A stretch of 64,000 nucleotides of DNA from a virus. Below are positions 9,297 through 55,860 of the stretch, piece after piece (the stretch's first letter is position 1; every line of letters begins with the position of its first letter). Position numbers and translations under genes: made by a program. The DNA lies in the IMG/VR virus record IMGVR_UViG_3300017728_000002, positions 21,482-85,481 of that record. One strand, given 5' to 3'. A model generated the notes under the pieces. The model was not told where the DNA came from and searched no databases. It saw only the letters and a program-made list of their open reading frames with translations.

Positions 9297-9314
9297 CCCC
9301 TAACTCTCTACACC

Positions 9315-10109
9315 ATGGCTAACACCAAACGCACTGTGTTGATCTGTCCAACCGCAAAGCTGGATCAATGTGTCAACGTTAAAAACCAAGCAGCTCCCAT
9401 TACCCTCGAGGAAATGGGCGTACCTGCTGCAGAAATTACATCCGATGAAGTAAACACTACTTCATCGTATGCTTCAAATCAAGTTGATGATGAGTACAAT
9501 CTAGGTACTGCAGGCTACACAGATGTTGATTTTAGTGCTCTTGTAGCTAGTAATTTTACTGGCGACTTTGAGATCTTGATTATTGACATGACTGAAGGTC
9601 GTGAGGCATTTCCTCGCCGGACTTACACAGCTGCAACTTTGGCTGATCTTCAAACTGTTATCCAAAATTCTACCTTGGAAGCTGGAGATGGTAAGACGTA
9701 CACAGCAACGCTTGACAATTCAAACAACACGATTAGAGTAACATACCCCTTGGGTGTGATTGCTAAAGTCGCTGCAAGCGATGGTGCTGCTTTGACTGCA
9801 GCTGCAGCAACGCTGCCTGCAGGTTACACTACAGTGACTGCAATGGCATATTTGAAAGATGCCATTACCGATCAGTACGGACGTACTAACCGGATCAAGT
9901 TTCCTGTAATTGAGCCGGATGTAGCTGTAGCGTTGACTGAGGCAAACGCAGCTGCTTCAGGTGCTAGCACTTGGGATTTGCACGTTTTCACAAAAGTGAG
10001 TGAGGTCAAGTTTGACAAGAACACGGCTAACAGCTACCAAGACGTAGAGACGTTTGAAATCTTGGTTCCTGCTGGTCTTGCTCTTCCTTTCGGAAACGTG
10101 ACTGTATAA
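9315..10109 (+). CDS. Putative auxiliary capsid protein / abundant structural protein
   Basis: Follows the ring gene; GRTNRIKFP motif; followed by a strong terminator, as expected for a high-copy protein. Confidence 0.5.
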   Translation: MANTKRTVLICPTAKLDQCVNVKNQAAPITLEEMGVPAAEITSDEVNTTSSYASNQVDDEYNLGTAGYTDVDFSALVASNFTGDFEILIIDMTEGREAFPRRTYTAATLADLQTVIQNSTLEAGDGKTYTATLDNSNNTIRVTYPLGVIAKVAASDGAALTAAAATLPAGYTTVTAMAYLKDAITDQYGRTNRIKFPVIEPDVAVALTEANAAASGASTWDLHVFTKVSEVKFDKNTANSYQDVETFEILVPAGLALPFGNVTV

Positions 10110-10132
10110 ACCTTAAGGTTGTTTTCAATTGC

Positions 10133-10168
10133 AAAGGGGGTGGGGGAGACTCTGCCCCTTTTTATTTT
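10133..10168 (+). terminator. Rho-independent terminator
   Basis: AAAGGGGGTGGGG-GAGA-CTCTGCCCC-TTTTTATTTT; GNRA loop and U-tract. Confidence 0.8.
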
Positions 10169-10176
10169 AATCTACA

Positions 10177-10782
10177 ATGGGACAGACATACACTCGGTGG
10201 AGTAAAAACACCACTTCGATTACAGGGTCACTGCACATTCAGGCGCAAGACTCTTTTCAAGCACCCAACTTTGTATTCGTCTTTCCCAACGGGGATTACT
10301 TCTCACAAACCAGTGCGCAGGCTTCAAACGAAACATACATTTTAGCAGGCACTCAAGCGTTGTTTGTAGTGAATGCACCTCTGCTAGTACAGAATGATAC
10401 TTACCCTGCAGACAACGGAGAGTTCTTTAATGCTTTAGATGAAACCATTGCATTCACGCGTACAACCATTGAGCAGGGCGTGTACTACTTCTCAGCTACT
10501 CAAGGGTCTGACATAGAGCAGCAGTACGTAATCATGATGCCTGACATTGAAGAGGCTATGGTTACGCTTGCACAAAAGCTTTTGGATACCCAATGTGCAT
10601 GCCAAATGAACCGAAGTGTAATGGACAACTACATTAAGGCAAAAGCCATGCAGCAGTTGATCTATTCTAAAGTTGCCGATCAAGGGGTAACGTTGAGCAC
10701 TACGTTCTTAGCTGATGTGAATGCGGATGTAACTGTTTTGCATGACTTTATGCAAGGCACAAGCGAGATTTGCGGATGTTGA
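10177..10782 (+). CDS. Putative tail hub/collar protein
   Basis: 201 aa with CxC near the C-terminal helices and a terminal CGC; syntenic with crAss hub genes. Confidence 0.45.
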   Translation: MGQTYTRWSKNTTSITGSLHIQAQDSFQAPNFVFVFPNGDYFSQTSAQASNETYILAGTQALFVVNAPLLVQNDTYPADNGEFFNALDETIAFTRTTIEQGVYYFSATQGSDIEQQYVIMMPDIEEAMVTLAQKLLDTQCACQMNRSVMDNYIKAKAMQQLIYSKVADQGVTLSTTFLADVNADVTVLHDFMQGTSEICGC

Positions 10783-10964
10783 TGTATCCAGGCGCAGACC
10801 ATTACGCTGAAAGTCAAGTTGCTCAATCTGCACGAGCCGTAGTAAAACTTGATTTGCCGGAAAAGTCATTTATGATTGGCCTCTTGGCAGACATTGAACA
10901 GGCCCAGGGAAGCTTGTCGTTGAAGGTTAATGAGATCAATTCACAGGATATCTTAAACCCGTAA
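10782..10964 (+). CDS. Small hypothetical protein
   Basis: TGATG coupling to the upstream gene; 60 aa. Confidence 0.45.
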   Translation: MYPGADHYAESQVAQSARAVVKLDLPEKSFMIGLLADIEQAQGSLSLKVNEINSQDILNP

Positions 10965-11002
10965 GGCTTTATACCTTATATTAAAGTGAGCTTAAAGCTC
11001 AC

Positions 11003-17505: not shown

Positions 17506-17508
17506 GAT

Positions 17509-18002: not shown

Positions 18003-18157
18003 ACATCATTAACGGGTGGAAAAACGCGAACAAGCAATCTGACAAGTTTCAAGTCAAGTTGCGTTTAGGCCGTGTCACGGTATATGACTTTTTCTATGAC
18101 ACCTCTGATCGCAAAGGGGGATTGACCTTTATGAACTTTTCAATGAAGTTGGGATGA
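17999..18157 (+). CDS. Small hypothetical protein (52 aa)
   Basis: ATGA overlap at 17999; MNIINGWKNANKQSDKFQVKLRLGRVTV... Confidence 0.6.
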   Translation: MNIINGWKNANKQSDKFQVKLRLGRVTVYDFFYDTSDRKGGLTFMNFSMKLG

Positions 18158-18755: not shown

Positions 18756-19374
18756 CCAGATCGCATACAACATCGCAGGCGCTGCAGACAAGAACACAGA
18801 CACTGTGTTTATCAATCGCTTGAAGTTTCAAATTGAATACTTCCGGGCGTTGTTCTTGCGTCGGGATGCTCAGTCTAACATGAGCATTCCAGATGCTGTC
18901 ATTCAAACGCGCATCATCGATATGGAATGGGTTCCTGCAGTAGAAGCTTGTGGAGTAAGCCTCCCGTGTAAGATTCTTAAAAGCAAGGAAAAGCTGTGTG
19001 CTCCGATCAATCTAAAAGGGCAGACTGGGTTTGTCTATGTCGGAGCTGTAGGAGGCAGTTTAAGCTATCAATACGTTACTCCCGAACAGGTTGTGTATGC
19101 ATTGAGCTCTAAGTGGACTGCAGGTCAGCCTAAGTACTTCTTTAAGGACAGGTACCTCTACGTAACGGAAGGAGCTCCCATGTGCCTTGAAGTACGCATG
19201 GCGTGTGAATCTCCTGCCACCGGCGGCGAAGAAGGTGTCGATGGGTTAGGCTGTTTAGATCACGACGCTGAGTACCCAATCTCTATGGACATGGTTCAGC
19301 GGATTACAGAAGCCATCCTAGGACAACTTCAAGCAGACTCTCTACAAGACAATGGGCAAATTGAAATTGAATGA
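18742..19374 (+). CDS. Tail ring protein (crAss-like)
   Basis: MPTLNQIAYNI...RALFLRRD...Cys pair...YFFKDRYLYV...DAEYPISMDMV. Confidence 0.75.
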   Translation: MPTLNQIAYNIAGAADKNTDTVFINRLKFQIEYFRALFLRRDAQSNMSIPDAVIQTRIIDMEWVPAVEACGVSLPCKILKSKEKLCAPINLKGQTGFVYVGAVGGSLSYQYVTPEQVVYALSSKWTAGQPKYFFKDRYLYVTEGAPMCLEVRMACESPATGGEEGVDGLGCLDHDAEYPISMDMVQRITEAILGQLQADSLQDNGQIEIE

Positions 19375-29706: not shown

Positions 29707-29745
29707 CCACTCTCTACCACCGGTCAATTCAGAAAAACTCTCTAC
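29704..29745 (+). promoter_or_regulatory. Leader element: hairpin with ACTCTCTAC loop + ATTCAGAAAAACTCTCTAC abutting the ATG
   Basis: TGACC-actctctaccacc-GGTCA, then an 18-nt core identical to 45930-45947 on the - strand. Confidence 0.7.
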
Positions 29746-32700
29746 ATGTCTGAAAACAACACTACTCCTGATTCTTCTTTTGAATCTCGTCAGGAAGACG
29801 CAGGGCTTACGCCTAAATCCAACATCCGTTTTGGCTTAAAACAAGACCCGCTCTATCAAGAGCAAGGGATGTTTCAAAGCCGTATGACCGAAAATCCGCA
29901 GGTCAAAGGAATAGACGTACAGAAGTATGCCCCTTACACAGGGTACATTACCCACCTTGGCACGCGTGATGCTATGCGGGCACGTGGTCAAAGCGTTGCA
30001 GAAAAGTGGGGCAATGGAATTTATCAAGCTGTAGTAGGCGAAGTAGTTGGGGGCAGTCTTCAAGGCTTAGGAGCCTTAGGTATGCTGGTTGACAGTGAGA
30101 AGAACTTTCTTTATGAGCTAGGTGAAGCCATCAATGAAGGAGCAAGAGACGCTACTCCTATTTATAAGCATAGCGACAAAGCGTTTGCGTTCAATGATGC
30201 TGGTTGGTGGGCCAGTAATCTGGGCAATATTCTTAGCACTGTAAGTATGTTGGTGCCAGGTATGGCAGTGTCCAAAGGTGCAAGTCTAGCTGCTCGAGGT
30301 CTTGTTGCAGCAGGTAAAGCTGGCAAGGCTGTTAAAGCAGGAAAAACCATTGGCAAAGCTGGAAAGGTTGCAGGTAAGGCTGCAGGTGAAGCTGCTGACG
30401 TTACTGCAGATGCTATGAAAGCTTCTGTGCGCGCACAGCGGCTAGAAAAAACCATGCAAACAGTTGCAGGTGGTTATGGCATGCGTCACGCTGAAAACAT
30501 TCGTGAAGGCGTAGATGTCGCTGTCCAAGCTGAGGAAGAGTTTATGCAAGATGGGCGGGCTTTAGAAGATTTTAAAGGGACTGTTGCGTACGATCAATAC
30601 CTCAAGGATCACGATCAGAAAGCGCCTATGAACAAGCAAGAGCTTGCTTCGTATGTCGGAGGTCAAGCAGCAGTGCGTTCGTATCAATTTAACATGTTGA
30701 ATCTGGTATTTGATGTGTTTCAAATGGGTACAATTTTTAAGCCCTTTAAAGCTGTAACGCGCGGTCAAGGTGTAGGTAAAGTAGGAGCTGCAGCCGCTGG
30801 TAAAGCAGCCGCTGGATTGGATAAAGGAACGCGTGCTACTCGAGCTTTAGAGAAAAGCAAAGGATTCTTAACTGAAGTGGGCAAAGCTGCTACAGAGGGC
30901 ATAGAAGAGTCAATCAACTTTATGGGAAGTGGCGAGGGCATGGCCCGTGCAGAATATTTAAGAGGGGTAGAGACTGGAAGCTTTGGAGAACGTCTTGACG
31001 ATTACTTCCACGACTCGCACTTGTATGAAAGTGCTTTCTGGGGTTTCCTTGGAGGAGGAGTGTTTCAAGGTCTTGGGTCCATTATGGGCAAGAAGCAAGA
31101 TGCTGCTATGACTTCTTTGCTTCGCCAGCAAGAAACCTTGGTTCGCGAAAGCGCAGAACTAGCCAAGGCTGAGAAAAGTGGCGATACAGAAAAAGCCAAT
31201 CAAATTCGAGCCAGGGTAATGGCTGATTTGGGCATCCGTGCTAGCCAATCTGGACGTGTAGATCAATTGCTAGATCAGCTCAATAGCGATGACTTCATGA
31301 AGCAGCTCCAAGAGCAAGGTCTGTTGGGCGAAAAGAGCATTGAAGAAGCTCGTAATGAACTGATTGAAGGCGTATTAAAGCAAGAAAAAGACTACAAGAA
31401 GATTGCTGAAGTTGCGGAAGAATACGGGTTGAGTAGTCAGGAAATGTTTGTCTTGCTTAAACAGCAGAACTCGTATGATGCTGGGTTAAAAAGCATTGCT
31501 GAGAAGCTTGAAGCAATTGACGATGCAAGCATTACTGAAGATCAAAAGCTTGCAGCTAAGTTTCAGCTGCGCGATTCGTTGGTTGAGCTTCAGAAGAAGG
31601 TAAAAAAGGAAAAGGGCAAAGACTCAAAGACTCCGTTTGGAGCAGAGTTAAAAGCGTTGCAGGAAGAGCTTAAAGACAAGGAGAAGCCTGCTGAGTTTGA
31701 GAAACTGCTGACCTACGAGGCTTTCAATCAAGCAAGGTTGTTGGCCGAACAAACCAGGTTAAAGCGAAAGCGTGCTGAGCTTACTACTGAACAGTCTCTT
31801 GCATATACTCGAACTACAGTAAATGCGTACAACAAGAATCAAGAAAAAGTCATTGCTGCTAGTTTCAAAAAGAGAGTTGCTGAAGAAGAAAATCTAGATA
31901 TTCTCAATAAACTTCTTGAACAGGCCAAACGAAATAAAGCTAAAGACCAGGAAATACTAATATCTGAGCGCATTGCTGAATTGAAAAAAACCAATGCTGA
32001 CAAAACAGATGCAGACAAAGCTCAAGAGGAAAATGAAGAAGGAGGTACTCCTGTACCTAAAGATGACTCTACTGAAGAAAATGAGCCTCCTACAGAAAAT
32101 GAACCTTCTAAAGAGAATGAGCCTCCTGAAGAGAATGATCCTGATGTAAGTGATGTTCTACCTGAAGGAGTAGTTCTCGAAGATGATGACGAGGTAGACT
32201 ACACCCTTGCTTATAGAGAGCCTTACGCTGATGGTTCTCCTTTTGATTTTGGTTCATTAACCAATCAGGAACGAAGGTTTTTAGATGCTTTAGATAACTT
32301 AGATACCGCTGAAACAGTGGAGAAAGCTCAAGCCCTTGTTTCTTTTGTACGCAACTACATTTTAAAGCAGCAAGAAGAAGGGAAGCCAATTAAACGCAAG
32401 TTTGATGGTAAAGTGGTTGACCAGGCTATTGCATATTTAGCAGAGGCTGAAAAAACTCCACCAGCTGCACCACAAGATTCTGCACCACAAGATTCTGCAC
32501 CACAAGATCCTACTTCGGACCCACCTACAGACCTACCTACAGATGACTTAGAGAATAGTACAGTCAAGGCTTTGAAAGCCATTGCTCGTCAAGAAGGGTT
32601 GACAGGTTATTCTAAGTTGAACAAGGCAGAGCTAGTTGCTGCTATTCGTGCACATCGTGAGCAAGCTACTTTGTTTCCTGAAAATAAAGTAACTCCACCT

Positions 32701-44700: not shown

Positions 44701-45093
44701 TACGTTCTTGCGTCATTGATTGAAGTAGATTCAGATGAAGAAGACGAGTTCTTCCTGTTGAATGACGCGTACTACAAAGCCAAGCTCTTGTACCACACAG
44801 AACGCTTAAACCAAGAGCTTGTGGCATATACTCCTTGGGGTATGTACGATACGGCTTTGAGGATTGGTCAAGACCCTGCAGCTGCTTCTAGACAGCTTAA
44901 GACGATGTTCAAGTTTATGCAACAAGCCGTCTATGGATTGGCTCCTGGCGTAGAGTTGGAGCGCTTTAAAGGCGGACGCAATTATGGTGATCTGAAGATC
45001 AGTACGTATGCTTTACAGCTATTGCCGCTTCTTAAGCAAGCTCTTCGTGAGATGAATACCATCTCAAGCCATACGATCTATAAGTTGAGTTAA
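29746..45093 (+). CDS. Giant virion RNA polymerase polyprotein (5115 aa) with two zincin-like HExxH domains and Rho-N-like and GrpE-like inserts
   Basis: Catalytic GSDFDIDKLF (39499-39513) preceded by YRVPAEGKNSM; DAQSYVT, KPFYFG, SAHKVG, DGAKDP; HEALH at 35158-35172 and HEFGH at 41551-41565; C-terminal RIHGSYN...GRLVLQFRKWM. Confidence 0.93.
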   Translation: MSENNTTPDSSFESRQEDAGLTPKSNIRFGLKQDPLYQEQGMFQSRMTENPQVKGIDVQKYAPYTGYITHLGTRDAMRARGQSVAEKWGNGIYQAVVGEVVGGSLQGLGALGMLVDSEKNFLYELGEAINEGARDATPIYKHSDKAFAFNDAGWWASNLGNILSTVSMLVPGMAVSKGASLAARGLVAAGKAGKAVKAGKTIGKAGKVAGKAAGEAADVTADAMKASVRAQRLEKTMQTVAGGYGMRHAENIREGVDVAVQAEEEFMQDGRALEDFKGTVAYDQYLKDHDQKAPMNKQELASYVGGQAAVRSYQFNMLNLVFDVFQMGTIFKPFKAVTRGQGVGKVGAAAAGKAAAGLDKGTRATRALEKSKGFLTEVGKAATEGIEESINFMGSGEGMARAEYLRGVETGSFGERLDDYFHDSHLYESAFWGFLGGGVFQGLGSIMGKKQDAAMTSLLRQQETLVRESAELAKAEKSGDTEKANQIRARVMADLGIRASQSGRVDQLLDQLNSDDFMKQLQEQGLLGEKSIEEARNELIEGVLKQEKDYKKIAEVAEEYGLSSQEMFVLLKQQNSYDAGLKSIAEKLEAIDDASITEDQKLAAKFQLRDSLVELQKKVKKEKGKDSKTPFGAELKALQEELKDKEKPAEFEKLLTYEAFNQARLLAEQTRLKRKRAELTTEQSLAYTRTTVNAYNKNQEKVIAASFKKRVAEEENLDILNKLLEQAKRNKAKDQEILISERIAELKKTNADKTDADKAQEENEEGGTPVPKDDSTEENEPPTENEPSKENEPPEENDPDVSDVLPEGVVLEDDDEVDYTLAYREPYADGSPFDFGSLTNQERRFLDALDNLDTAETVEKAQALVSFVRNYILKQQEEGKPIKRKFDGKVVDQAIAYLAEAEKTPPAAPQDSAPQDSAPQDPTSDPPTDLPTDDLENSTVKALKAIARQEGLTGYSKLNKAELVAAIRAHREQATLFPENKVTPPTDESPAEKKRRESQQNRVEKHSKELYEALESYAEAVANRDALQDSKNADSKEAVAAELAADKAAMKVLNALNNLTSHSLLSQQNKVESYISSDLREYMELATETLEQDGYTSDHVKPGQVYDETLSVDVEIVNDETLEPGVELIQKINQPEIRKKGKVIQRGQVVVVQGPLLSKPVIEPETVEAPEGQIKMIMNDLMEAFLQQMQIRTSVTMPTTRVREHALIEGTRLTLEGPVAEQYEALMFALTNPSASVTIRISDNQVEVKNPIYKTSVNNKLGVKSLTRKTVGSKTYTYENEEDNSPDYEVVVEYQGKTVVIGNVPRVGTLLKQASRLQNQYRNQPTGDDADANPYWRNAYADANLNALQAIRHADAIALFRKYLDSQDSGSISFTGLSEQIALDGSFKRGSLLRPSDQMDTLNMHPEVTDAIDEHGLCVMMTDPSSGEPYLLNLKTGLKTAVPYQDGVMAMNAQAGTYAFKNQSNKISSTGAVFIPIRDPNSPLKPMWVRMPDMTLKEANRTDFVSNILYGPGTSEQKFELLRSVMSTPPPSVTSESQIMEGFTGAAFISGPSNGQPRLVILKDRKIVMDFNPDGTPRTEIQKAVLEQLKFRLDAKSPELASYEKEGKRDEETRQTLKSLAQSIKQNGRMPIAPVVKKDSAGNDVIIGYHHPVPAARFERDREAQSQNQLFNPEAQSTMLPIAIDMARLQAQNPEAPASPDTKPTDTSDPKKSNEKGGESTDFWNESDDGAMFMTVEKALASDFYAMSTSKDQLEAELWLAKNLPHVPFRRVKGLIERGGVTAYGIWEQGMIRVSDISVVGTEYHEALHAVMDTYLSPKRRAKIMAEARAKYGDLGPIKLEEKIAEAFREYMLTEGKSMTEKSALRRFFSEILALVQAMFQGQYRTRQLMQNINRGRYAYKPSQRSKNFLTKFSKVPAFDAAEMSELEQVMPFLVNYILKDIREAFVGNNPKDVLMRRYGREEDAQVLEGLLQTIAEIKDLSVESDEDGNTIEIQREKKKLIAEGIIRVIFDSRGLFQYMIKSSSRASEERKLEIYDRLGHNEEVLVEHFSTNPRVQRMIMQAIAIDASTGTTDIEQNFSASIAEINPMDKVPASIKNLISRTIYIPGDRSGRLIETILGNQGTEAALEAIAEVSGTDVDKSDAFSRFGLPRFLQFETVYPFLLNQLSSLPSYEAMETRMLELSVYNPSLASIVLALRKDAEPGTLTELQKQFYVGMKRASSEELNVSLETQYDERVERKFQVPVVKDEFIYEPAWHLVQRNKEAVYNAILQFTPAEKEKVLNALSALAKQRNETPEVRVKTIKILVRTFQKLEFSTMDPSALANAMHVMSNNELGGLADMLERLILAGNEAQTSAILREVVRIMKLADADMGAVQSSYMSNLKTKYAHVNPSYLTEELDRLKSAFKEEYLKERFAHNAHLEESMWHIMLDEESLTYRRFGQLGPHAYTDMDVAQRLEYDLLALFRMGKNAQGRQIRVTGYSAIPTPSDATGSFMVSNDFVHYPENVKNRILASIYDAETRKDVTHMSLPIDRSKVDINSIESKAEYMRALLEQEAAALLSIPEFKEVIDKLQVPLGYGPVEGRSRDEGRVTMVNSYVAATYVSNWNVSNWMGGTIDHFGGDVTKYQKRFKQIMSPGQTSADKGTFRNVTIEDPVVFEDWATEVEYSDNGKPVKNADGTYRRIPSAIDRADAQSYVTLDFWERMLSSHGELTDYKKAVIEKARKGEALSVSERSVFAPYKPFYFGWVQGQPHQLKNSVIPLLPPVKGQAPISVELEAMRKWMVHPDNKVDQITLKSAHKVGVTSKATSMFQDGKFKAPEPGYTQYDLPMEFHRNQVSITEHNNHNGTVGLGTQTGPIIMSNLRNYEGLGEVHIQKLLKTEQRMMNMKLKELKGKLFVQGTELGKNGEEDVSKRTVPDVARVRQYVLDNVRDDVHPAVLEILSSPLASAGRISPLVAFAVNQTLAAAVQKDFKKQKVTGGMQVQISDLGHTNPTTDADLKGMRVVGSQQEVEGPYTWDDSMATDLIVGMNNREFVVVKLGESPKTGRELNADDFLNGLKEGFEVIDMHGKKPMTVGLDSAMASLMKRDFEKWLTTKKNLKTRPQSLVTPEYISDYSDPKRELARYVKERQTNRKDFEVDPELELAYEYYRSKEIDSDRNNEAFTSSSSSLPTGPEKVVMAEVKMNRKFLPKQYREMSIEEIRAIDPTLLEVMVYRVPAEGKNSMAMCKVVQFLPSGQDGMVIPAAFVAQMGSDFDIDKLFVNWKKVPREGRELNAYDRAANKFFDLQKDVLMNPEVVKTEVLVPQGFETIKAFRTEMATARRKGGVSDIDVFAQRRPYSALTHLQLWSDNVAGIGLKGIAANNNTFWMKVQRHNMQVEGIPMKDMPLELMQWNAEAVAASMDGAKDPVWGTMGIDRKNFSFFMYECTMGYMRAMKENPSADKVKTLNKARNEALAAATDSDVMQAMTTRVNDFNAETEKTDNVKRYQAYLKQEAYRALKDLTRVSEMKINKELIDLLAAKEPVLDNYNLTLDAEGNIILDSDGNPELQAVKDAKGNTLPTMGKAYVNAPVIKGALDIATASELLMSGGMGIHYYRTVGRYNGISFPQYCAVQTFKAADEFVEGKRAEVMGERSVSERFREVDLEDVQSWNMRHWIVWLNTSDEGRAIRDDKDNAFLRKMLLHITVGRAYEVNYNRYDRITPIQLNDPIKAEEFQKAWENTLTPPLSYEGSVHYPSEFAKALVRYEAARSGWRRGSSTFTQFLPTEIVKNVSGEDATSLQIAAHAVLDSRVESGTEKMALLSNRPMRYGKHTYVTLPGENRRTKVTTPVLMLGFRGMSSIDAIAGELQVNQSTVEEEIAEYKAKQKKSQSLEAFGDIASSTTTSERIAMLQSRFASYGIKVRVEFDSTLEGAGDVQYDKESGVIRLHPDRMKSDTVLHEFGHIYIEMLGFENPAVQQAIEELRNTELYREVAEMYPHLSQRDLDMEVLATAIGLEGDAIYDKAKNPNKLRTLINKLFRALGKLFGIQPNTARELARKMIEGSDVRTNNLKSFRAEQRLKKGLDAQTLMIEVADEIMNRIDHMRRLGATTEEQQVLLDSLQEDSSMFREVAESGATAVLDSLVVAMSDYLQKTTEFISHAETYVDTSSAAGLKKQDTELLNQAYQLSQVLNTFSQTFASFDKDTVDVDFDQQERFATTNKAFVEMAGPVQVMQTRLTSLVRKMLNKKLVANSSNPRIKEAMEAGLDIFSLAQTEFGDITTDTSKGEVQFMGLLDQDSNAVLTLFGKTLRDVVNTEELQSKQDIQKLYSILDDFESQGGSIESLLDEDGQSFVSPYRDAFYSAQSKATNRRKWRAMNMEQKYVESYYLEHVYSKDHKDIKVLKEEIARYEEGARAGTLTEADKLHLDQLQEDLATREQSLESFKKYHEPVWDLEKFEKDKADAESQGPDVAAAWKAAYVHSSGKPKFNSPYYKTSKVKDKFLNPKWTGTDMPKAKWLNPKAKELSPLQQETIEALKNLMKNAVGFEDHRMFNESLIPQIENPESKSLTEVLRDMPREALETNKDTARMGTDSEGRKIFLRGGLKHSRRSDGLVSTDLRKTIAQFVVEARAAKAANNIETFSLMTRDELGRMELTARKGWSMGRVDGKRLNLNDNKRAGTIKGDRSNSMDVIEHVLEGYLGQGWQTTGKYDSQAALLQSYISFQGIGFNPSAWVNNIMYGELMQILDAVGGDMYTSESLNLAKKQVYAGIRDLALARDKGTKPKTRLAAVMHFFDATMDQRELPETSELLDKFYNLAYIGQSFGELLMQSQVVLAMMYDTKVKLDTGETVNLYEALTWDGEARGIGFKAGKVIRKDGTLVDLDINYLGSFKTKAVNVLQRIHGSYNAEDMGRFHRIAVGRLVLQFRKWMPQALKKRFGADRFSEVRETEEIGYYRALWDKIIVPGVMGNVDDAKRFRFYATYQSQPPHVQKAIKRAAIEMGLGVSSAILSYVLASLIEVDSDEEDEFFLLNDAYYKAKLLYHTERLNQELVAYTPWGMYDTALRIGQDPAAASRQLKTMFKFMQQAVYGLAPGVELERFKGGRNYGDLKISTYALQLLPLLKQALREMNTISSHTIYKLS
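32465..32508 (+). repeat. 15-bp tandem repeat (CTGCACCACAAGATT)x3 encoding SAPQD in an RNAP linker
   Basis: Read directly from the sequence. Confidence 0.9.
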
Positions 45094-45590
45094 CCTATAG
45101 AGCGTGTGTCTAGAATGACAGGAGCTGATTGTTTAAGGACTTTCTCAATGTCGTAGACTTTAAAGTCCATCTTAAACGGGGTGTCTAAAAGAAAGTCGCT
45201 CATGTATGATATGAATTCCTTTCTGCTGGGAGCAATGTAAGTGCAGGTAAAGTTGACAGACGTACTGAGCTCTGGCGTCTGTCGCTTAAGTTTCATGATC
45301 TCAATGCACCAGTTTTGTCCTATAAGCTTGTCTTGTAGGGTGCTGGCTTCAACATCGTTTACGATGATTTCTACTTTACAACTAAACTCGAAACCAAAAA
45401 ATTTGTGGTTGATGTGACATTGGGGAGTACTGATGGCTCCTTTTTCAAACAGTGCGCGGACCCTCATTAAAGTAGGACCTGGACTAAGACCTACAGATTT
45501 AGCAAGGTCTTGGTTTGAAATGCTGGCGTCTTTCTGTAACACGTTGATTAGTTCAATGTCAGTGGAATCGATGTTTTTCTTCCTAGGCAT
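45090..45590 (-). CDS. Lrp/AsnC family transcriptional regulator
   Basis: IDSTDIELINVLQKDASISNQDLAKSVGLSPGPTLMRVRALFEKGAI HTH followed by a RAM-like C-terminal domain; ATG at 45590 preferred over TTG at 45605. Confidence 0.88.
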   Translation of the reverse strand: MPRKKNIDSTDIELINVLQKDASISNQDLAKSVGLSPGPTLMRVRALFEKGAISTPQCHINHKFFGFEFSCKVEIIVNDVEASTLQDKLIGQNWCIEIMKLKRQTPELSTSVNFTCTYIAPSRKEFISYMSDFLLDTPFKMDFKVYDIEKVLKQSAPVILDTRSIG

Positions 45591-45692: not shown

Positions 45693-45917
45693 TTATTTTG
45701 TTTCCACGTATTTGATAAGCAAATTCAGGTAATGTTGGGCCTTGTGTAAGTCTTCTACACCTCCTTTGGCTTTGTACCTCGACACGTACTTAATGATGTT
45801 CCCTTCTATGAATCCCATGCCATTGGCGAGGATGTACTCTATCGGAGGAATCTTAAGGTCGTAATGGTTCCCTCCAACTTGAGTGGTTTGCTCTAACTTT
45901 GGGACGTGCTTAGGCAT
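45693..45917 (-). CDS. DUF3310 family protein
   Basis: QVGGNHY...PIEYILANGMGFIEGNIIKYVSRYKAKGGVEDLHKAQHYL. Confidence 0.92.
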   Translation of the reverse strand: MPKHVPKLEQTTQVGGNHYDLKIPPIEYILANGMGFIEGNIIKYVSRYKAKGGVEDLHKAQHYLNLLIKYVETK

Positions 45918-45973
45918 GTAGAGAAATTTTAGAGAGTTTTTCTGAATAGGGGAGGAAGTAGAGAGCCTCCCCT
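45918..45973 (-). promoter_or_regulatory. Leader element: 8-bp hairpin with CTCTCTAC loop + ATTCAGAAAAACTCTCTA + TTCTCTAC-ATG
   Basis: Minus strand reads AGGGGAGG-ctctctactt-CCTCCCCT-ATTCAGAAAAACTCTCTAAAATTTCTCTAC-ATG. Confidence 0.7.
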
Positions 45974-48150: not shown

Positions 48151-48154
48151 TGAT

Positions 48155-48196
48155 GTAGAGAGTGAAATGGGAGCAGGATTTCTCCTGCCCCCCATT
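48155..48196 (-). promoter_or_regulatory. GNRA hairpin followed by ACTCTCTAC box
   Basis: Minus strand AATGGGGGGCAGGA-GAAA-TCCTGCTCCCATT-tc-ACTCTCTAC-atca-ATG. Confidence 0.65.
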
Positions 48197-48206
48197 CATG
48201 TTTCAA

Positions 48207-49352
48207 TTAGACAGCTACGTGTAAACGTTCTGCCAGAATCTGACGAAAGCCTTGGGCTTTGCAGTCCTCTGGTTGAGCCGCTTCTACAAGCTCCTCAAGT
48301 TGTTTCTCCAACTCGCGCTCTTCCCACGTCTTGTAGTCAATCTCAAAGTATGGAGTACGAATCTCCACACCTTTGGTCAAGTCTACCATGCCGTAAGCGT
48401 AGTACTCACACACACGCATTTTCATGTAGCTGTAGTCTGAAGGGACTGCAACTACATTCATAGGATTGACAAGGCATGCAATGAATGCACTTCCACTTCC
48501 GCCAAACTTCTTAACATACTCAGGGGTGCCAATGTGCAAACCTGAGCTGCATGCATTCTTTGGGTTGTTGTCACAATCAGCACGAGGCATGCTGACGCTT
48601 CCACCCAACCGAACAGAAGTAGTTCCACTCCAGTGATCGGTAAACTCAGGCGCTTCGACAAGGCCGTTGTTTTGATCTTGGAACATAGACTCCAAGTTGC
48701 CCAAGACATTTTCCGGAGCAATGAAGTTCCCTTTGTCGTCTTGCAACACTTCGGTAAGTACCGCTTTCAAGTCTCCACCTTCAGGATCCTTGACTGCTGT
48801 GTAATCTGCTGGGTTCAACCCTTCTGCTTTGAGCATCAGGTATTCCTTAGGCACAAAGTTTGTCACAGCACTGTACTTCTTGTTGGTCTGCTTGCACGCA
48901 CGATAACCAATGAAGTACCCATTGTCGGTAATGGGGAAATCATAGGTGTCCATGAACTTAAACAGGTCTTCCCGGACGTGAGTGTCTGGGTTTAGAATCA
49001 ACAACTTCCAGAAGTTGATCATGGAAGTAATGGATTTGCCTTCTTGAAGCAAATTGGTCATCCGAACCAAAAGAGTTTCGGGTATTGCAGCAGCTTCATA
49101 CCCTGTGAGGTAGAACTTTCCGTTCCGCTCTGTCAAGATATCATTCATCTTGAGGGTGTGCCCTGGGTCCAGGTCGGACACCAGGGTTGAAACATTGACT
49201 TGCGTAGGATGCAAAGCAGTAGATTTTGCAGTTTCGTAAAATCCAGCCGCGTCTGCGTTGTTGCTGAATTGACGAGCATACATTTTGTCATCCACGATGA
49301 CGTGCACTAAGGCGTCGTGACGCAGTGCTGTAATTGAGGCAGTGTAGGCCAT
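48207..49352 (-). CDS. rIIB: RIIB-like protein
   Basis: NFWKLLILNP...DLFKF...PITDNGYFIGYR; VSMPRADCDNNPKNACSSGLHIG; VNPMNVVAVPSDY...KMRVCEY. Confidence 0.88.
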   Translation of the reverse strand: MAYTASITALRHDALVHVIVDDKMYARQFSNNADAAGFYETAKSTALHPTQVNVSTLVSDLDPGHTLKMNDILTERNGKFYLTGYEAAAIPETLLVRMTNLLQEGKSITSMINFWKLLILNPDTHVREDLFKFMDTYDFPITDNGYFIGYRACKQTNKKYSAVTNFVPKEYLMLKAEGLNPADYTAVKDPEGGDLKAVLTEVLQDDKGNFIAPENVLGNLESMFQDQNNGLVEAPEFTDHWSGTTSVRLGGSVSMPRADCDNNPKNACSSGLHIGTPEYVKKFGGSGSAFIACLVNPMNVVAVPSDYSYMKMRVCEYYAYGMVDLTKGVEIRTPYFEIDYKTWEERELEKQLEELVEAAQPEDCKAQGFRQILAERLHVAV

Positions 49353-49355
49353 TTG

Positions 49356-51539
49356 TTATAGAGAGTTTATAGCTTGACGGTAGAGATCGTCACTAGTATG
49401 TTGATGTAGGATACTATTCAGTATCACGGTTCCTGCTGGCGTCTTCTGAAGTTGTTTCTGGATGTTTCTAAATTGAGCAGCTACCTTGTTAGGCGTGTAT
49501 ACTGCTCCGTTGTGCTGTAATATACTGAATGATTCTACAGATGGGGCTTCTATGTCAAATATTTCGCTGTTTATGACACTGTAAATCCAACCATTAGACT
49601 TTTTAGGTCTAGGAGGTAGTGTAAGGTGTTCTTTCAAGCACCCAAGTCGCATCAAAGTAAATCCTTGTAAGCAGTAGCTATGAATATGTTCTTTAAACCA
49701 CTGCCACTGGCTGTGTTCTAGGTTTTTAGCTTGCTGTCGTAAGATGATTTGCTTCAACTTGGCTAGATCCCAGCACTCTACACCGGACTTTTGAAGTCGC
49801 TTAAAGTTGCCGTCACTAGCGCAGTACAAGTCTTTAGGCAACACAACATTCCACTCAATAGCCTTGGCATACTTGTATTGAATGACAATTGCTTTGGTGT
49901 CTTTAAGCTCCTTGTAAGTCTTTGTTGTGCGGGTGTATGCATTATTCTGTACCACCTTTACAGGCAGTTCCGTTTTCAGCATCTCCGCAGTCCAATTAGA
50001 GCCAGTCTTACGACGAAGCTTAAGGTTTTCCTTACGGTCTACAAGCCATTTCTCTGTAGGTGTGTAATCTGCATATTTCTCTGTGTGTTTTTGAAAGAAC
50101 TCGTTGAGTATCACAGTAATGATCTGTTCAATCTTATTGTGTATCTCTTCTTTACGGTTTTCATCTACATTGTTTAAACCATACCTGCATACCTCTTGAA
50201 TAATGGGCATGAAGTTTTGGTTTACGTTAAAAATCAAAGCATAGGTGGTGGTTAGGTTGTTGTTCTCTTGAAAGAATTCTTTCCAAACCGTACCCAGTCT
50301 TTGATCTCCACGCTTTCTAATCATCGTGTAAGTAGCGGACGTGTTCGGTACTCCCTTGACAATGTCACGACCACTTAGTGTAGATACAGATCGCCACTTA
50401 CCTATTTGCAAGTCTAGTTTAGCACTAGGCTCTAAAAGTTGACCAACGATGCTCGTAAACCGGTCTTCTTGAACTTCTTTAGGCCAACCTTCAACGCTTG
50501 AGGTAAGGTGAAAATGGCGAGTACTTGCAATAATTTGATGAGTATCCGGATACACCAACTCGTTTTTACGAGAGCCATACCCATAAAGCAATTTGAGGTC
50601 TGTAGAATATCCTGATTGGGCTTGTTGCCATGTTTCAAACACAGAATTTACTTGACTCAACTTTTGATCAAGCAGTTCTTTGGCGTTGTCGTTTAACTCC
50701 AAACCTTCTCTAGACAAGGTTGGGTTGATCTCGCCAATGTTCAGCTTAATCACAAAGTTGGTCAGATAACTGTCTCCATCCAGGTGCGGAATTTTGTACA
50801 AAACATTGCCTAACGAAACCATTAGCCCGTTATGGCAAAGGGTTCTGTCGTTCTGCTCAATCCTTAAGAAAGACCCGTAATCAAAGACTTTGCTTTCATT
50901 GAATATGAATTCGCCAGGAAGAGAGATGCTCAGCATATGACCAAGAAGCACCAACTGGTTCTCTATGGCCATTACAAATTGAGTTGTATCAGCACGAGAA
51001 TACACGGGGATCGTGATTAACGTACCGTTGCTTTCATCGGTTTCAATCTCATTGATCATAGTGCATGTGCGCTCTGCACTGCTCTTTTCCATGAGATAAC
51101 TCCGCTTGACTCCGTCTATATAAGTTGTGACTTGAAAGACAGGAGTGTAAGCAAAGGGACTCTTTGCACCGATACCGAATCCACCAATCTGTTCGTTAGA
51201 ATCACGTTTGGTAGAGGCAAAGTATTGCGTGAAGATGTTCTCAATGCGGTTAGGAGTAATGCCAGGACCGAAGTCTCGCACACTAAACTCGCCTACAGCG
51301 TTACTCAAGCTTGGCACATTGGTCAGCTTTACTTGAACTTTCTGAGTGGAACGGGCTTCTTGGTTAGCGTCGACAGCATTGGACACGACCTCTCGGACGA
51401 TAGACCCATACTTGTCTTGGTATACTGAGTTAGACATTAACTCAGCGAGGTGTGTTGCGGCATCTGCTGCAAACCCCATTTTAATCTTTTGCCCCGACAC
51501 AGTAGACTCGTACTGTCGTTGGGCTGTATTCATTTTCAT
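49356..51539 (-). CDS. rIIA: RIIA-like protein (GHKL/Hsp90-type ATPase N-terminus)
   Basis: REVVSNAVDA, VRDFGPGI, YFASTKRDSNEQIGGFGIGAKSPFAY, NGTLITIP; adjacent to rIIB. Confidence 0.88.
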   Translation of the reverse strand: MKMNTAQRQYESTVSGQKIKMGFAADAATHLAELMSNSVYQDKYGSIVREVVSNAVDANQEARSTQKVQVKLTNVPSLSNAVGEFSVRDFGPGITPNRIENIFTQYFASTKRDSNEQIGGFGIGAKSPFAYTPVFQVTTYIDGVKRSYLMEKSSAERTCTMINEIETDESNGTLITIPVYSRADTTQFVMAIENQLVLLGHMLSISLPGEFIFNESKVFDYGSFLRIEQNDRTLCHNGLMVSLGNVLYKIPHLDGDSYLTNFVIKLNIGEINPTLSREGLELNDNAKELLDQKLSQVNSVFETWQQAQSGYSTDLKLLYGYGSRKNELVYPDTHQIIASTRHFHLTSSVEGWPKEVQEDRFTSIVGQLLEPSAKLDLQIGKWRSVSTLSGRDIVKGVPNTSATYTMIRKRGDQRLGTVWKEFFQENNNLTTTYALIFNVNQNFMPIIQEVCRYGLNNVDENRKEEIHNKIEQIITVILNEFFQKHTEKYADYTPTEKWLVDRKENLKLRRKTGSNWTAEMLKTELPVKVVQNNAYTRTTKTYKELKDTKAIVIQYKYAKAIEWNVVLPKDLYCASDGNFKRLQKSGVECWDLAKLKQIILRQQAKNLEHSQWQWFKEHIHSYCLQGFTLMRLGCLKEHLTLPPRPKKSNGWIYSVINSEIFDIEAPSVESFSILQHNGAVYTPNKVAAQFRNIQKQLQKTPAGTVILNSILHQHTSDDLYRQAINSL

Positions 51540-51904
51540 AGAGAGTAATTCAATTGTGGATCTGGTATATCCGTATTCATGTATTCAGCAGCCCATTGTC
51601 GGATGCTGTCGATATAGGTTTTAAAACGATTCTTGGTCATTTCAGTCGTGCTCATGATTCTCATGCCAAGCACAATTCCGTCATCTTGTATTAGGTCGCC
51701 TAAAGCAAAATTTGCTTTGAGCCAGTTGTGTGTGTCAGTGTATGTAAGAGGTGCAGGAACAGCACCTTCAATAATTGTAGAGCGATCCCACCCGTGGTCA
51801 GTTAACGTTGAGCAAACGATCGGGACTACGATTTTCCAGTAGTACCGGTTCTGTGCTGAAGTGCGCTTTGTATCCGGGGTGGTCTCTAAGGAGTTGTCGG
51901 TCAT
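51536..51904 (-). CDS. NinB/DUF1367-like recombination protein
   Basis: KRTSAQNRYYW, HNWLK, STTEMTKNRFKTYIDSIRQWAAEYMNTDIPDP; start uncertain. Confidence 0.72.
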   Translation of the reverse strand: MTDNSLETTPDTKRTSAQNRYYWKIVVPIVCSTLTDHGWDRSTIIEGAVPAPLTYTDTHNWLKANFALGDLIQDDGIVLGMRIMSTTEMTKNRFKTYIDSIRQWAAEYMNTDIPDPQLNYSL

Positions 51905-52445: not shown

Positions 52446-53410
52446 TTCCTGAGGGTATCTATCCATTGAGTGGCTGCATACGGAGATGCTTTGTACAAGT
52501 CAGAGATGTCTTTAGCTCCTTCTACAAAAGCATATCTCCAGTTGAACTTTTTGCGCCACTTATTGGCAAACTTTACTCCGGTGTAGTCTCGGTCATACAC
52601 GATGACGATGTCATCAAACCGTTGTTTCCAGTCTTCTACTTCTTCATCTGTAAAGCTGTAGCTCTCGCTTTGAGGGGCTACGGCTGCAATGCCAAATTCA
52701 TAGAAGACCATAACGTCTTTCATGCTTTTGGTTACAACAAGCAGCTTTCCTTTCTGAGGTAATTGGTCTACTCCTTGCAGGCACTGCGTGTTCTGAATGA
52801 ACCTAGTGCCAGTGGAGAATGGCATATAGAGTTTAAAGAAATCATCCCCGAAGTAGTAGGCAAAGCCTGGTTGAGCGGTTCGGTGTGTAAACACTCGTTT
52901 GCCATTACAAGCAGCCAAGTAGAGCTGGAAAATTCTGTATGTCTTAAGGGTTTCGACAGTAATGCCGAACTGACCCCAAAACGATACTCCATCAGGATCT
53001 ATGTGCCATGCCCCGTTATGGGTCAAAGGCTGGATTCCAATTTCAGAAGCTTCGTTAGCGTTGGTCTTGGCGTATTCCAGGTGATCGTAGTTTTTGGCTA
53101 CAAAAGCATCTGGTATGTGCAGGTTCAAATCACTAACGATTTGTTTCAGGGCCTCTTTAAAGTTGATTCCCAATACCATACAGGCTACATCGAAACAATC
53201 CAAGCTTTCGCTTTTAGAGAAGTCTCGGAAGTAGAGTTTGCCTGCTTTGGAGTAAAAGAAACAGCACGAAGGGTTCTTGTCTTCGCGGATAGGGGAATGA
53301 AACTTTTGTTTTACCTGGATAGGAACATGGAGATAAAACTCCATGATCTGTTCTTGAGGTACTCGTTCCAATACCCAATCCCTGTTGAATACAGGTTGGA
53401 TAGCGTACAT
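52442..53410 (-). CDS. DNA primase (crAss-type, DnaG-like)
   Basis: HSPIREDKNPSC zinc-binding-like region, YFRDFS, DCFD, TOPRIM VVTKSMKDVM, APQSE, YDRDYTG, KDISD. Confidence 0.9.
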   Translation of the reverse strand: MYAIQPVFNRDWVLERVPQEQIMEFYLHVPIQVKQKFHSPIREDKNPSCCFFYSKAGKLYFRDFSKSESLDCFDVACMVLGINFKEALKQIVSDLNLHIPDAFVAKNYDHLEYAKTNANEASEIGIQPLTHNGAWHIDPDGVSFWGQFGITVETLKTYRIFQLYLAACNGKRVFTHRTAQPGFAYYFGDDFFKLYMPFSTGTRFIQNTQCLQGVDQLPQKGKLLVVTKSMKDVMVFYEFGIAAVAPQSESYSFTDEEVEDWKQRFDDIVIVYDRDYTGVKFANKWRKKFNWRYAFVEGAKDISDLYKASPYAATQWIDTLRK

Positions 53411-53440
53411 GTAGAGAGTTGTAGAGAGTTGTAGAGAGAG
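53411..53440 (-). repeat. 10-bp tandem repeat (AACTCTCTAC)x~3 immediately before the primase ATG
   Basis: Plus strand gtagagagtt gtagagagtt gtagagagag. Confidence 0.9.
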
Positions 53441-53449
53441 AGTAGGTAA

Positions 53450-53529
53450 GAGGGGGGCCTTTGCCGCCCCCCTCCGTCCTAAGGTTTCACGTAATGCGAA
53501 ACTCCCATCACACTATTCGGTGTAACGAG
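53450..53529 (-). promoter_or_regulatory. Three consecutive hairpins in the primase leader
   Basis: Minus strand CTCGTTACAC-cgaata-GTGTGATGGG; GTTTCGC-attac-GTGAAAC; GAGGGGGGC-ggcaaag-GCCCCCCTC. Confidence 0.6.
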
Positions 53530-54186
53530 TCAAAATTCCAATCCTGAATCTTCTGCAGCTACTGGTGGTGTCAACACTGGTGCTGGGTCTGCATCAAAAG
53601 GAGCAGGTTCACCTCCCAACATGGCGTTTAGATCATCACTGTTGGCCGAAGCTTTAGGAGTAATCCGTTCATACTTTTGGTGGTATACAAACGTATCGTT
53701 GTCACTCATAAGCAGAATGAAATCATTCAACGCGCGTCGAGGGAATACAGTAAAGTCCTTCTGGTTCAAGATTAGCTTGAGCCTAACTGGAACATCTACC
53801 CATCGATCGTTCAAGTTGTCAATGACTGCTTGAGAGAATTCTTGATAGTTGGCTCCTTTAACAGTGATGTCACTCAAAGGCATGTAGCAACTCATGATGT
53901 GCTTAATCCTTTCGGTTGTGTCACGCATCATCTCCTCTAGAAGGTCCTTGTAGTCTTTGCCCCATGCGTGAGCATTGGATTTGACTTTTTCAGGAATGAT
54001 CTCCCATTCATTATGAGTAAAGATTTGACCTTTATCATTGGTGAACTCAAACTTCAGCACTTTGTCTCCTGTGCCGTTTGCTTTAAAGGGTTCATATGCA
54101 ATGCGCTTTAAGACGCAGTTGTTGTTTGTGCCAGCAGGCATTGGATTGAAGCCACGCTTCAAAGGGGTACTGTCAATTGTAAACAT
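53530..54186 (-). CDS. Putative single-stranded DNA-binding protein
   Basis: Beta-rich N-terminus, flexible Pro/Ala linker, acidic-aromatic tail (EDSGLEF); directly follows the AAA ATPase. Confidence 0.55.
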   Translation of the reverse strand: MFTIDSTPLKRGFNPMPAGTNNNCVLKRIAYEPFKANGTGDKVLKFEFTNDKGQIFTHNEWEIIPEKVKSNAHAWGKDYKDLLEEMMRDTTERIKHIMSCYMPLSDITVKGANYQEFSQAVIDNLNDRWVDVPVRLKLILNQKDFTVFPRRALNDFILLMSDNDTFVYHQKYERITPKASANSDDLNAMLGGEPAPFDADPAPVLTPPVAAEDSGLEF

Positions 54187-54188
54187 GT

Positions 54189-54860
54189 TTAGTCGATGTA
54201 GATATTAGACCATTGGAATGAAAGGGCTTGGTCAGCCAGATGAGGGCAACGACTGCCCGCTTGGGTATTGTCACTACCCGTTTTGAACGTGATCATGAGT
54301 TCATCAGATTCGCGGTAAACGAATCCAATGGCATCTGCAGCACTCATAAGCTCATTCTTAAGCTTACCGGTAAGGTTTAGCTCGTTGATGTCGATCACTT
54401 TGTTGTGATCTTCGTCCACTACAGTACTTCGCTTGGTGTGTCCAACGATGATGATACCCTTAGTGGCAAGGGCTGCCAGCTTTTGCACGGCGTTAACTAC
54501 TGCTTCACGAACTAAGGCAAAACCTTTGCCAAATTCCATGTCGCCAATAGTGGCTACTTCATGCTGCTTGCAGACGTATCGTTCTATCCAGGCAGCCAAA
54601 TTGTCTACCGTGTCTAAAGCGATGTAATCATACTTGGTGTCGGACTGACTTAAACTTTGATTTAGGAGTTTGTACTCGTTAAGATTGTCGACATACACTT
54701 TCATGGCGTCAACATATTCAGTACCTCGTTCTGTGTCAATGATTAAGCAGTTGTCCAGCTTAGCGATCGTCGATGTTTTACCGGCTTTTGGGGAGCCATA
54801 GAGAAGTAAAAATCGAGGGTCTTTTCTTGTAGCAGTTGTTTTGCTAGTGGGTAAATCCAT
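54189..54860 (-). CDS. AAA_24 / Sak4-like P-loop ATPase
   Basis: LLYGSPKAGKTS Walker A, IIDTERG, YIALDTV, IIVGH, ADAIGFVYR. Confidence 0.88.
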   Translation of the reverse strand: MDLPTSKTTATRKDPRFLLLYGSPKAGKTSTIAKLDNCLIIDTERGTEYVDAMKVYVDNLNEYKLLNQSLSQSDTKYDYIALDTVDNLAAWIERYVCKQHEVATIGDMEFGKGFALVREAVVNAVQKLAALATKGIIIVGHTKRSTVVDEDHNKVIDINELNLTGKLKNELMSAADAIGFVYRESDELMITFKTGSDNTQAGSRCPHLADQALSFQWSNIYID

Positions 54861-54876
54861 TTTAAATTTTAGAGAG

Positions 54877-55860
54877 TTATGATAGTATTCGGGAGTCTGT
54901 CCATTCTGTGATACGCCCTTGATCCAAATCAGAAATCAGACGAACGTACCCTTGGGTTCCATGTCTGTTCTTGAGGATGTGAAGGGCAATCAAGTTCTTG
55001 CCTTGTTCTGTTATTGTAGGGACGTGATTCTTACCATAGACTTCTAGTCCCAACAATGCCGGCTGGTGTACCACAAGGCACACATCGCAAGCATGGTAGA
55101 GTTGTTTGGAACCATGGATGTCTGTTTTGGTAGGGAAATGCAATGAAGCAGCCCCTGGGTCACGTCGTATAGCTGATTCTATTTTGTCATTGAGTTGGCA
55201 TAGCAGGATGTTCATGGTATTGAACTCCTTGCGGATCTTGATGAACATTTTACCAAGCTCAGCTAACGTCTGTATCTCGTTTTCACCTGGCATAGGCTGA
55301 ACCAGCAAAGCGTGGTCTAGCGTAACAACCAAGTTGTCGTCTGGAAACTTCTCACGCATCTTACAGATGGTGTTCAGTATGTCTTGCCTTGTACCTGGAG
55401 TTTCGCAGAAGTAGATAGGCTCTTCTCGAACTTTGTCTAGTTGCTGCTTGACTTTTTGGTATTGGTCAGCGTCTAAAGGACGATCTGCAGAAAGCAAATC
55501 CCGATATGACAGCTGTATGGCTGTAGACAATCTGCGCAAAATCTCTGTAGAAGCACTCATCTCAAAACAGAAGTGTAGAATTTTACACTTGTGGTTTTGA
55601 ATTCGCTCATTGATGAAATTCTGTATCAAAATATTCAGCATGTAGCTCTTACCATGACCTGAAGCACCACACAGCATATAGGTCTGCCCAAACTCAAAAC
55701 CTCCCAAGAGGTATCGGTTGAGCAGATCCCATTCTGTGCGCACCATAACGCGGTCTCCAGTCATAGACGCGTAAATCTGTTGATTGGCGTCTTTGATGGA
55801 AACTGCCATCTTCCGAATGGGAAGACTATTGGAGCTCTCGGTCTGCAGGTAAGATGACAT
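54877..55860 (-). CDS. dnaB: DnaB-like replicative helicase (C-terminal ATPase domain only)
   Basis: CGASGHGKS, FCFEMS, VTLDHALLV, LLCQLN, DIHGSKQLYHACD, HILKNRHG; start uncertain. Confidence 0.88.
   Translation of the reverse strand: MSSYLQTESSNSLPIRKMAVSIKDANQQIYASMTGDRVMVRTEWDLLNRYLLGGFEFGQTYMLCGASGHGKSYMLNILIQNFINERIQNHKCKILHFCFEMSASTEILRRLSTAIQLSYRDLLSADRPLDADQYQKVKQQLDKVREEPIYFCETPGTRQDILNTICKMREKFPDDNLVVTLDHALLVQPMPGENEIQTLAELGKMFIKIRKEFNTMNILLCQLNDKIESAIRRDPGAASLHFPTKTDIHGSKQLYHACDVCLVVHQPALLGLEVYGKNHVPTITEQGKNLIALHILKNRHGTQGYVRLISDLDQGRITEWTDSRILS

Follow-up and report, generated by a model that had tools for sequence, protein, structure and literature searches.

Short sequences that recur directly ahead of many start codons of a single phage genome have a described precedent in the ‘start-associated sequences’ (SAS) of Cluster K mycobacteriophages. 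These are 13 nt long and contain an AGGAG Shine–Dalgarno core. They occur in 11–19 copies per genome, nearly all in one orientation, a few nucleotides upstream of start codons that are mostly ATG (Pope et al. 2011, PMC3203893). The genes that carry them form a subset, mainly non-structural and of differing families; the SAS sometimes overlaps the stop codon of the upstream gene, and is absent from the host genome. About half of the copies have an upstream inverted repeat (‘ESAS’), and a host or phage factor, RNA or protein, was proposed to act on them (PMC3203893). Their function was still untested in 2025 (PMC12699233). Here we describe an element of comparable layout in a marine crAss-like phage. 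It was found in a 64,000-nt stretch of DNA, ‘the window’, which spans bases 21482–85481 of the 85,481-bp single-contig virus record IMGVR_UViG_3300017728_000002. The element, which we call ‘the box’, reads ACTCTCTA(C); it is 8–9 letters long, lacks G, and stands directly ahead of about fifteen start codons. It had been proposed, from the window's letters alone, as a novel signal (the original prediction); in view of the SAS, that novelty is a qualified one.

Other phage systems combine repeated signals with start codons in different ways. In T4, a single factor, RegA, acts on the AUG-overlapping initiation regions of many early and replication mRNAs, including those of rIIA and rIIB; its sites are loosely conserved and AU-rich. 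T4-type phages also carry ‘PeSLs’ (promoter-early stem-loops), hairpin-plus-signal cassettes repeated between small genes in plastic regions, in which sigma-70 early promoters lie well upstream of the Shine–Dalgarno site. In Bacteroidota hosts, ribosomes are largely independent of Shine–Dalgarno pairing, and the sigma-A promoter comprises a −7 TAnnTTTG element with a −33 TTTG. Among crAss-like phages, middle promoters have been mapped in the Cellulophaga phage phi14:2, with the −7 element 4–6 nt from the ATG of g070, g093 and g110 (Drobysheva et al., bioRxiv 10.1101/2020.03.07.982082).

A strand-specific box at start codons

The box is real, strongly non-random, sense-oriented and tied to start codons. 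The window has 14 copies of ACTCTCTA, where dinucleotide shuffles give a mean of 2.36 (maximum 7; 0 of 100 reach 14). Eleven of these copies are sense, and the three antisense ones (18460, 23330 and 42992) lie inside + arm genes. Genome-wide the count rises to 24 (20 sense, 4 antisense), and the 9-mer ACTCTCTAC occurs 10 times in sense orientation and never in antisense. Windows of up to 30 nt upstream of starts make up 2.8% of positions, and 16 of the 20 sense copies end from −1 to 29 nt ahead of an ATG (median ~6; binomial P ~7e-22); all of the starts are ATG. Within the window, the 8-mer is separated from the ATG by 4, 7, 29/1, 12, 5, 6, −1 (5 to a second ATG), 11/1 and 9 nt. ACTCTCTACA is the genome's most repeated 10-mer, and CTCTCTA is present in 11 of 79 upstream windows of 25 nt (0.25 expected). 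The original prediction had placed all of its 14 copies, 11 sense and 3 antisense, exactly, and the enrichment at starts that it proposed is upheld. Its list was correct as far as it went, but missed variants at 45918-45925, 49380-49387 and 53431-53439, the loop of a hairpin that holds another copy (45958-45965), and nine copies elsewhere in the genome.

The motif tolerates little variation. Copies with one mismatch vary mainly at the last base, two-mismatch copies are at control level, and variant boxes share the core TCTCTAC. The flanks are not conserved, save for some A before the box and C or A after it, and some leaders have longer identical stretches in common (TTCAGAAAAACTCTCTA). The leaders of the phage are G-poor overall (15% G versus 23.5% in coding sequence), and the box is predicted to be unpaired, typically with a probability of 0.7–1.0 versus ~0.6 overall. 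Boxes occupy tight intercistronic junctions, including ATGA and TAATG overlaps, and in two genes (genome positions 9205 and ~6203) copies lie on both sides of the ATG. The box is also written into the ends of upstream genes. The three overlaps noted in the original prediction (INSL*, YSL* and DSLQ) are correct, a helicase end, ...ITL*, adds a fourth, and the last 33 nt of upstream genes hold 4 box copies versus 0.45 in synonymous-codon shuffles (maximum 3 in 200).

The genome that carries these copies is laid out as two convergent arms. The + arm encodes head, tail and giant cargo genes; the − arm comprises early genes, a non-coding region, and genes for DNA polymerase A, helicases, primase, rIIA/rIIB and a DnaA_C-type protein. 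Its capsid protein is ~33% identical to gut crAss-like phage capsids and 70% identical to its counterpart in a prophage of Zeaxanthinibacter sp. PT1 (Flavobacteriaceae), and near-identical DNA occurs mostly in seawater, marine and viral-metagenome sequencing runs; no RNA run was among those listed. The early/replication arm carries 17 of the 20 sense copies, and 4 copies, at three genes, are on the structural arm. This distribution, together with a tagged gene set that is not conserved in relatives, does not bear out the proposal of a conserved regulon coordinating structural and replication genes.

On the + arm, the first box (9303-9310) lies 4 nt before the ATG at 9315 of a 264-amino-acid (aa) open reading frame (ORF) without a Pfam or PHROG match. 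The second (19337-19344) is written into the 3′-terminal codons of the crAss ring-2 gene (DSLQ) and precedes the ATG at 19352 of a 153-aa ORF by 7 nt. The third gene is a giant cargo ORF of 5115 aa with its ATG at 29746. Its leader has two boxes: one (29709-29716) begins 2 nt past the stop of the upstream gene, and the other (29737-29744) ends 1 nt before the ATG. The giant protein contains a single DFDID motif, at residue 3252, like the phi14:2 RNA polymerase gp66, and this motif is the one basis on which it may be labelled the phage's own RNA polymerase; Pfam/HMM, PHROG and PDB sequence searches gave no match to a polymerase. Its only Pfam match is a Rho_N/SAP-like motif at residues 934-968 (window 32545-32649).

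On the − arm, the ATG at 45917 of a DUF3310 protein is abutted by a variant box, TTCTCTAC (45918-45925), and a standard box (45930-45937) lies 12 nt before it, preceded by TTCAGAAAA as in the giant-gene leader. Upstream again is a hairpin with one G-rich and one C-rich arm (45948-45973), the loop of which carries CTCTCTAC (45958-45965), predicted unpaired with a probability of 1.0. The gene for the DnaA_C-type helix-turn-helix (HTH) protein (ATG 48150) has a box 5 nt before its start (48156-48163) and, 5 nt upstream of the box, a GC-rich hairpin of 10 pairs with a GAAA loop and no T run (48169-48192). The rIIB box (49359-49366) occupies the last codons of rIIA (INSL*), 6 nt before the ATG at 49352, and a variant, ATCTCTAC (49380-49387), lies 27 nt before the same ATG. 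The box of rIIA itself (51539-51546) is in the last codons of the gene upstream (YSL*) and overlaps the first rIIA ATG. At the primase, three 10-nt units in tandem (CTCTCTCTAC, AACTCTCTAC, AACTCTCTAC; 53411-53440) abut the ATG at 53410; they include the variant copy TCTCTCTAC (53431-53439), and a GC-rich hairpin without a T run (53449-53475) lies 8 nt upstream of them. Last, the box at 54870-54877 includes the helicase stop (CTC TAA) and precedes the ATG at 54860 of an AAA_24 ATPase by 9 nt. Of the nine tagged genes in the window, three have a hairpin upstream; these hairpins have perfect GC-rich stems, unlike the 17-bp ESAS.

Several further features of the genome were recorded. The leader of a 73-aa gene (L118:9200-9245, −) is the only tagged one in which box and AUG are predicted to be sequestered: AUGGUGUGGGGUAG pairs with UUCUCUACACCAUG, leaving an unpaired probability of 0.01–0.16. 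The last gene of the − arm (window 45090-45590, −) encodes an AsnC-type HTH protein and has no box; upstream of it is a long AT-rich gap with a T-run terminator. Very large ORFs with dockerin-like repeats lie in window 57699-64000 (−) and L118:1-2781, and the ORF at the window end may run across the contig ends into a 927-aa ORF at the start of the record. An integrase is encoded at L118:15717-16790. No relatives were found for a 729-aa protein.

Relatives, and a prophage with a different box

A comparable box is missing from four full-length relatives, G001 (capsid 89% identical), G002, G003 and G004. Their orthologous genes have A-rich leaders of the kind usual in Bacteroidota, and the box stands where the orthologues in G001 have such leaders. 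G004 has only a weak ACCCTTAAT motif before 4–5 starts. A metagenome relative, L116, has an rIIA 74% identical. Two tandem CTCTCTCTAC units abut its primase ATG, versus three here, and its rIIA copy is lost, the YSL* residues being kept with other codons. Diverged contigs in two runs have the same indels in the primase-leader array, and another relative, L009, has ATCTCTAA-ATCTCTCTAC before a different gene; the membership of the tagged gene set varies among relatives. Searches of IMG/VR with exact leaders returned only chance matches or unrelated tandem repeats, and primase relatives there reach only ~33% identity at most. Most of the relatives thus lack the box.

CTCTAA upstream of the capsid gene, considered as a conserved promoter in relatives, was rejected: it is the conserved ...DLL* end of the preceding protein. 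The clade-wide block ahead of the capsid gene (window 2473-2517 and loci L001–L083) consists of this ...DLL* C-terminus followed by a conserved CC(C/T)TTAA. On an unrelated 73-kb IMG/VR contig (L178:14280-14580), an iteron-like cluster of repeats contains CTCTCTAC and appears to be unrelated to the box.

The prophage of Zeaxanthinibacter sp. PT1 is integrated in the genome of a cultured isolate (G006:C1 ~907,000-998,500, loci L235–L243; ~90 kb). It shares the two-arm plan and has a 5143-aa cargo gene with a DFDVD motif. It also has its own box, (A)ATCACCAC(A), often after ACTTAAAA, which lies 1–13 nt before 12 ATGs on the − arm and is that prophage's most repeated 10-mer; TCACCAC occurs in 8 of 77 prophage upstream windows versus 0.17 expected. 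The motif extends to ~20 nt with fixed spacing, ACTTAA-N-ATCACCAC. The tagged genes differ: DNA polymerase in the prophage, primase and rII in the present phage. The giant polymerase proteins of the related phages are 21–32% identical over their best matching segments. In the whole 3.3-Mb host genome, ATCACCAC-N0-4-ATG has 21 matches, 8 of which are in the ~90-kb prophage, a density ~22 times that in the host. Because matches concentrate in this way, the specificity of the box is the phage's and not the host's. ACTCTCTA is, for its part, under-represented in two Bacteroidota metagenome-assembled genomes.

The two phages also resemble each other in how their boxes relate to hairpins. Several boxes in both lie 5–25 nt after hairpins, and in the prophage some follow canonical T-run terminators. 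Each phage, moreover, has one terminator-like hairpin with its own box as the loop, for which we estimate a chance of ~1e-3 per phage.

What might read the box

Our preferred reading, held tentatively and with a probability of about 0.45, is that the box acts in RNA as part of the translation-initiation region, where a factor specified by the phage would read it. In mRNA, the box would be a G-free, unpaired segment from −1 to ~20 nt ahead of the AUG, in some cases with a further copy immediately past the AUG. A trans-acting factor with a specificity set by the phage, most likely an RNA-binding protein, would recognize it and tune initiation, by repressing or boosting it, on the Shine–Dalgarno-independent ribosomes of Bacteroidota. 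We favor action in RNA because the box is coupled to the ATG and not to an upstream element, sits in tight junctions and stop/start overlaps, and flanks the ATG in two genes; because it is G-free and predicted unpaired, and recurs in hairpin loops in two phages; and because it replaces the A-rich leaders of the G001 orthologues.

The relation of the box to promoter-like elements also favors this reading. An unrelated motif, TGTCTAAAAAGAWGRCTTT, occurs in eight co-oriented copies (L118:9252-13381, −, and window 57651-57660) and marks early cassettes. Most copies have a hairpin on one side and a small early gene on the other, 17–62 nt before the ATG; the motif is likely an early promoter, possibly for an injected polymerase. 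One copy lies 37 nt upstream of a box-bearing ATG, and in the prophage a TAnnTTTG element precedes one box by 36 nt, which would place both of these boxes inside 5′ untranslated regions.

Several points weigh against an RNA-level factor. The arm's proteins yielded no RNA-binding, S21 or similar domain in Pfam, PHROG and Atlas searches, Atlas searches of two proteins lacking annotation gave no lead, and no RegA-like protein was found. No gene is common exclusively to the two box-bearing phages. Boxes 5–25 nt after hairpins or T-run terminators would leave space only for a promoter, if termination is efficient, and the non-conserved tagged set would suit a generic expression signal better than a regulon. 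A small RNA as the reader, the other candidate of the original prediction besides an RNA-binding protein, fares no better: a genome-wide scan for antisense RNA gave nothing beyond chance. The best non-coding antisense match, GGAGAGUU at genome position 10222, forms 8 pairs, one of them G.U, and ~0.24 such matches are expected by chance in the 1-kb region (estimate); comparison of the window and the first 20 kb with Rfam gave no family match. An exposed antisense RNA was not found in the genome, nor was a candidate RNA-binding protein. The 1-kb ORF-free region contains a hairpin (L118:10341-10380, −) with the loop UCUCUAAA, part of ACUCUCUAAAGU. This loop, one more loop copy of the box and a point in favor of the RNA-level reading, is conserved in G001 (G001:22720-22780), a relative without boxes at gene starts, and other patches of the region are conserved in G002, L042–L044, L067 and L072.

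The main rival is that the box is a compact, phage-private promoter of the middle class, used by a phage polymerase or a redirected host polymerase, with transcription starting at, or a few nucleotides before, the ATG to give leaderless or short-leader mRNAs. We consider this quite possible, though less likely than the preferred reading. TAnnTTTG occurs 18 times in the phage versus ~42 expected, once at a gene start and never at a box, so the phage needs some other promoter; the original prediction was right that the box is not this element. Promoters abutting starts have a precedent in those mapped in phi14:2, 4–6 nt from the ATG, and private promoter motifs are used by other two-barrel phage polymerases. 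Boxes that follow terminator-like hairpins leave no space for another promoter, the prophage motif spans ~20 nt with fixed spacing, and a sharp motif that differs between phages with diverged giant polymerases is the classic pattern of polymerase–promoter co-change. However, gaps of −1 to 1 nt demand initiation inside the conserved box or at its last base, copies just after the ATG in two genes are hard to place, and the hairpin-loop copies in two phages are left unexplained. One box is downstream of a separate promoter-like motif, and many are in tight operon junctions without a terminator. In phi14:2, furthermore, the early transcripts made by the virion polymerase lack a shared motif, and host-type promoters serve the middle and late genes. 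A resemblance to T7-like promoters (ACTCxCTAxA) was dropped, as protein-family searches of the phage proteins found no T7-type polymerase gene; no sigma-like protein was found either, and a sigma-70 and terminator scan showed no enrichment over shuffles. Only one host-type −7 element is located at a start: TATATTTG, which precedes the ATG of an 81-aa ORF (L118:14137-14393, +) by 3 nt. This ORF is antisense to the early arm and looks like a host-transcribed leaderless gene, perhaps related to lysogeny.

Three other explanations have less in their favor. The box sits at the Shine–Dalgarno position, and a G.U-rich duplex of 8 bp with GUGGGGAG near position 770 of the 16S rRNA is possible, so that pairing with host rRNA might be envisaged. 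This is the only 16S pairing available: Zeaxanthinibacter 16S, including its 3′ tail, has no Watson–Crick complement of the box. The segment near 770 is universally conserved and not known to be implicated in mRNA binding, and therefore cannot account for a box that a single phage has to itself. Platform pairing would need more than gaps of 0–1 nt, host genes do not use the prophage's box, and relatives have other boxes or none. Pairing of this kind is largely refuted, and would need GUAGAGAG exposed in the 16S of the true host. The original prediction's statement that the box is not a Shine–Dalgarno sequence is borne out by this and by its lack of G; of its suggestion of a ribosome-recruitment or promoter signal, the phage specificity holds, and a general host ribosome signal is unlikely, given that the prophage's analogous box is concentrated in the prophage and not in host genes. 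It is doubtful, though less so, that no dedicated factor exists at all, and that the box is a ‘house-style’ leader cassette, spread by recombination or duplication, that serves as a generic unstructured, G-poor initiation region. Leaders are G-poor in general, two-mismatch variants are not enriched (as copy-and-paste predicts), tandem duplications vary in number among strains (three units versus two), some leaders share longer identical stretches, and gene membership varies among relatives. Yet most copies share only the 8–10-nt core with differing flanks, that core is retained in a relative at 74% protein identity, synonymous codon choice writes it into coding sequence, and drift hardly explains hairpin-loop copies in two phages. 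An RNA processing or antitermination site, cut by an endonuclease (RegB-like or MazF-like) or bound by a factor that modulates adjacent hairpins, would account for boxes next to hairpins and inside hairpin loops. Several sites read UACAU, a motif of some MazF enzymes. We think such a site very improbable: a hairpin is lacking at most copies, no candidate nuclease emerged, and the position relative to the AUG need not then be so tight.

Extending the preferred reading of an RNA-level initiation element, some marine crAss-like phages may possess a fast-evolving factor that reads a G-free leader box of the phage's own (ACUCUCUAC or AUCACCAC, depending on the phage), either as a separate initiation route on Bacteroidota ribosomes that disregard Shine–Dalgarno sites or as a phage-controlled switch on them, and that also binds box-bearing hairpin loops, including that of an abundant non-coding RNA of the phage. 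As a whole, this wider scheme is speculative and rather unlikely.

Comparison with known systems

With phi14:2, the phage shares its order and host class, and an element close to ATGs that include genes adjoining the polymerase gene. The phi14:2 element, however, is of host type (TTG / TAnnTTTG) and is read by the host RNA polymerase, whereas the box has no such sequence, lies nearer still to the start codon, and is peculiar to the phage. The two boxes bear on how middle genes are expressed in crAss-like phages that lack host-type promoters.

The SAS are the nearer likeness. Box and SAS agree in copy number (20 sense copies here), orientation, start-proximal position, bias toward ATG and overlap with stop codons. 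They differ in that the box is 8–9 nt long, has no G and no rRNA complementarity, and belongs to a host group that does not use Shine–Dalgarno pairing; their sequences are unrelated, the phage is of the crAss-like group, and its hairpins are not homologous to the ESAS. The SAS consensus, moreover, is common to subclusters, while the box differs completely between two related phages. Since the box lacks the Shine–Dalgarno core, it is a variant of the SAS kind and not a member. The SAS have been without a mechanism since 2011. The same design without a Shine–Dalgarno core, in crAss-like phages of Bacteroidota, shows that start-associated tags are not simply ribosome-binding sites in elaborated form, and points to a phage-specified trans factor, in translation or in transcription. 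The two related phages with different boxes, one of them a prophage in a cultured strain, amount to a natural specificity-swap experiment.

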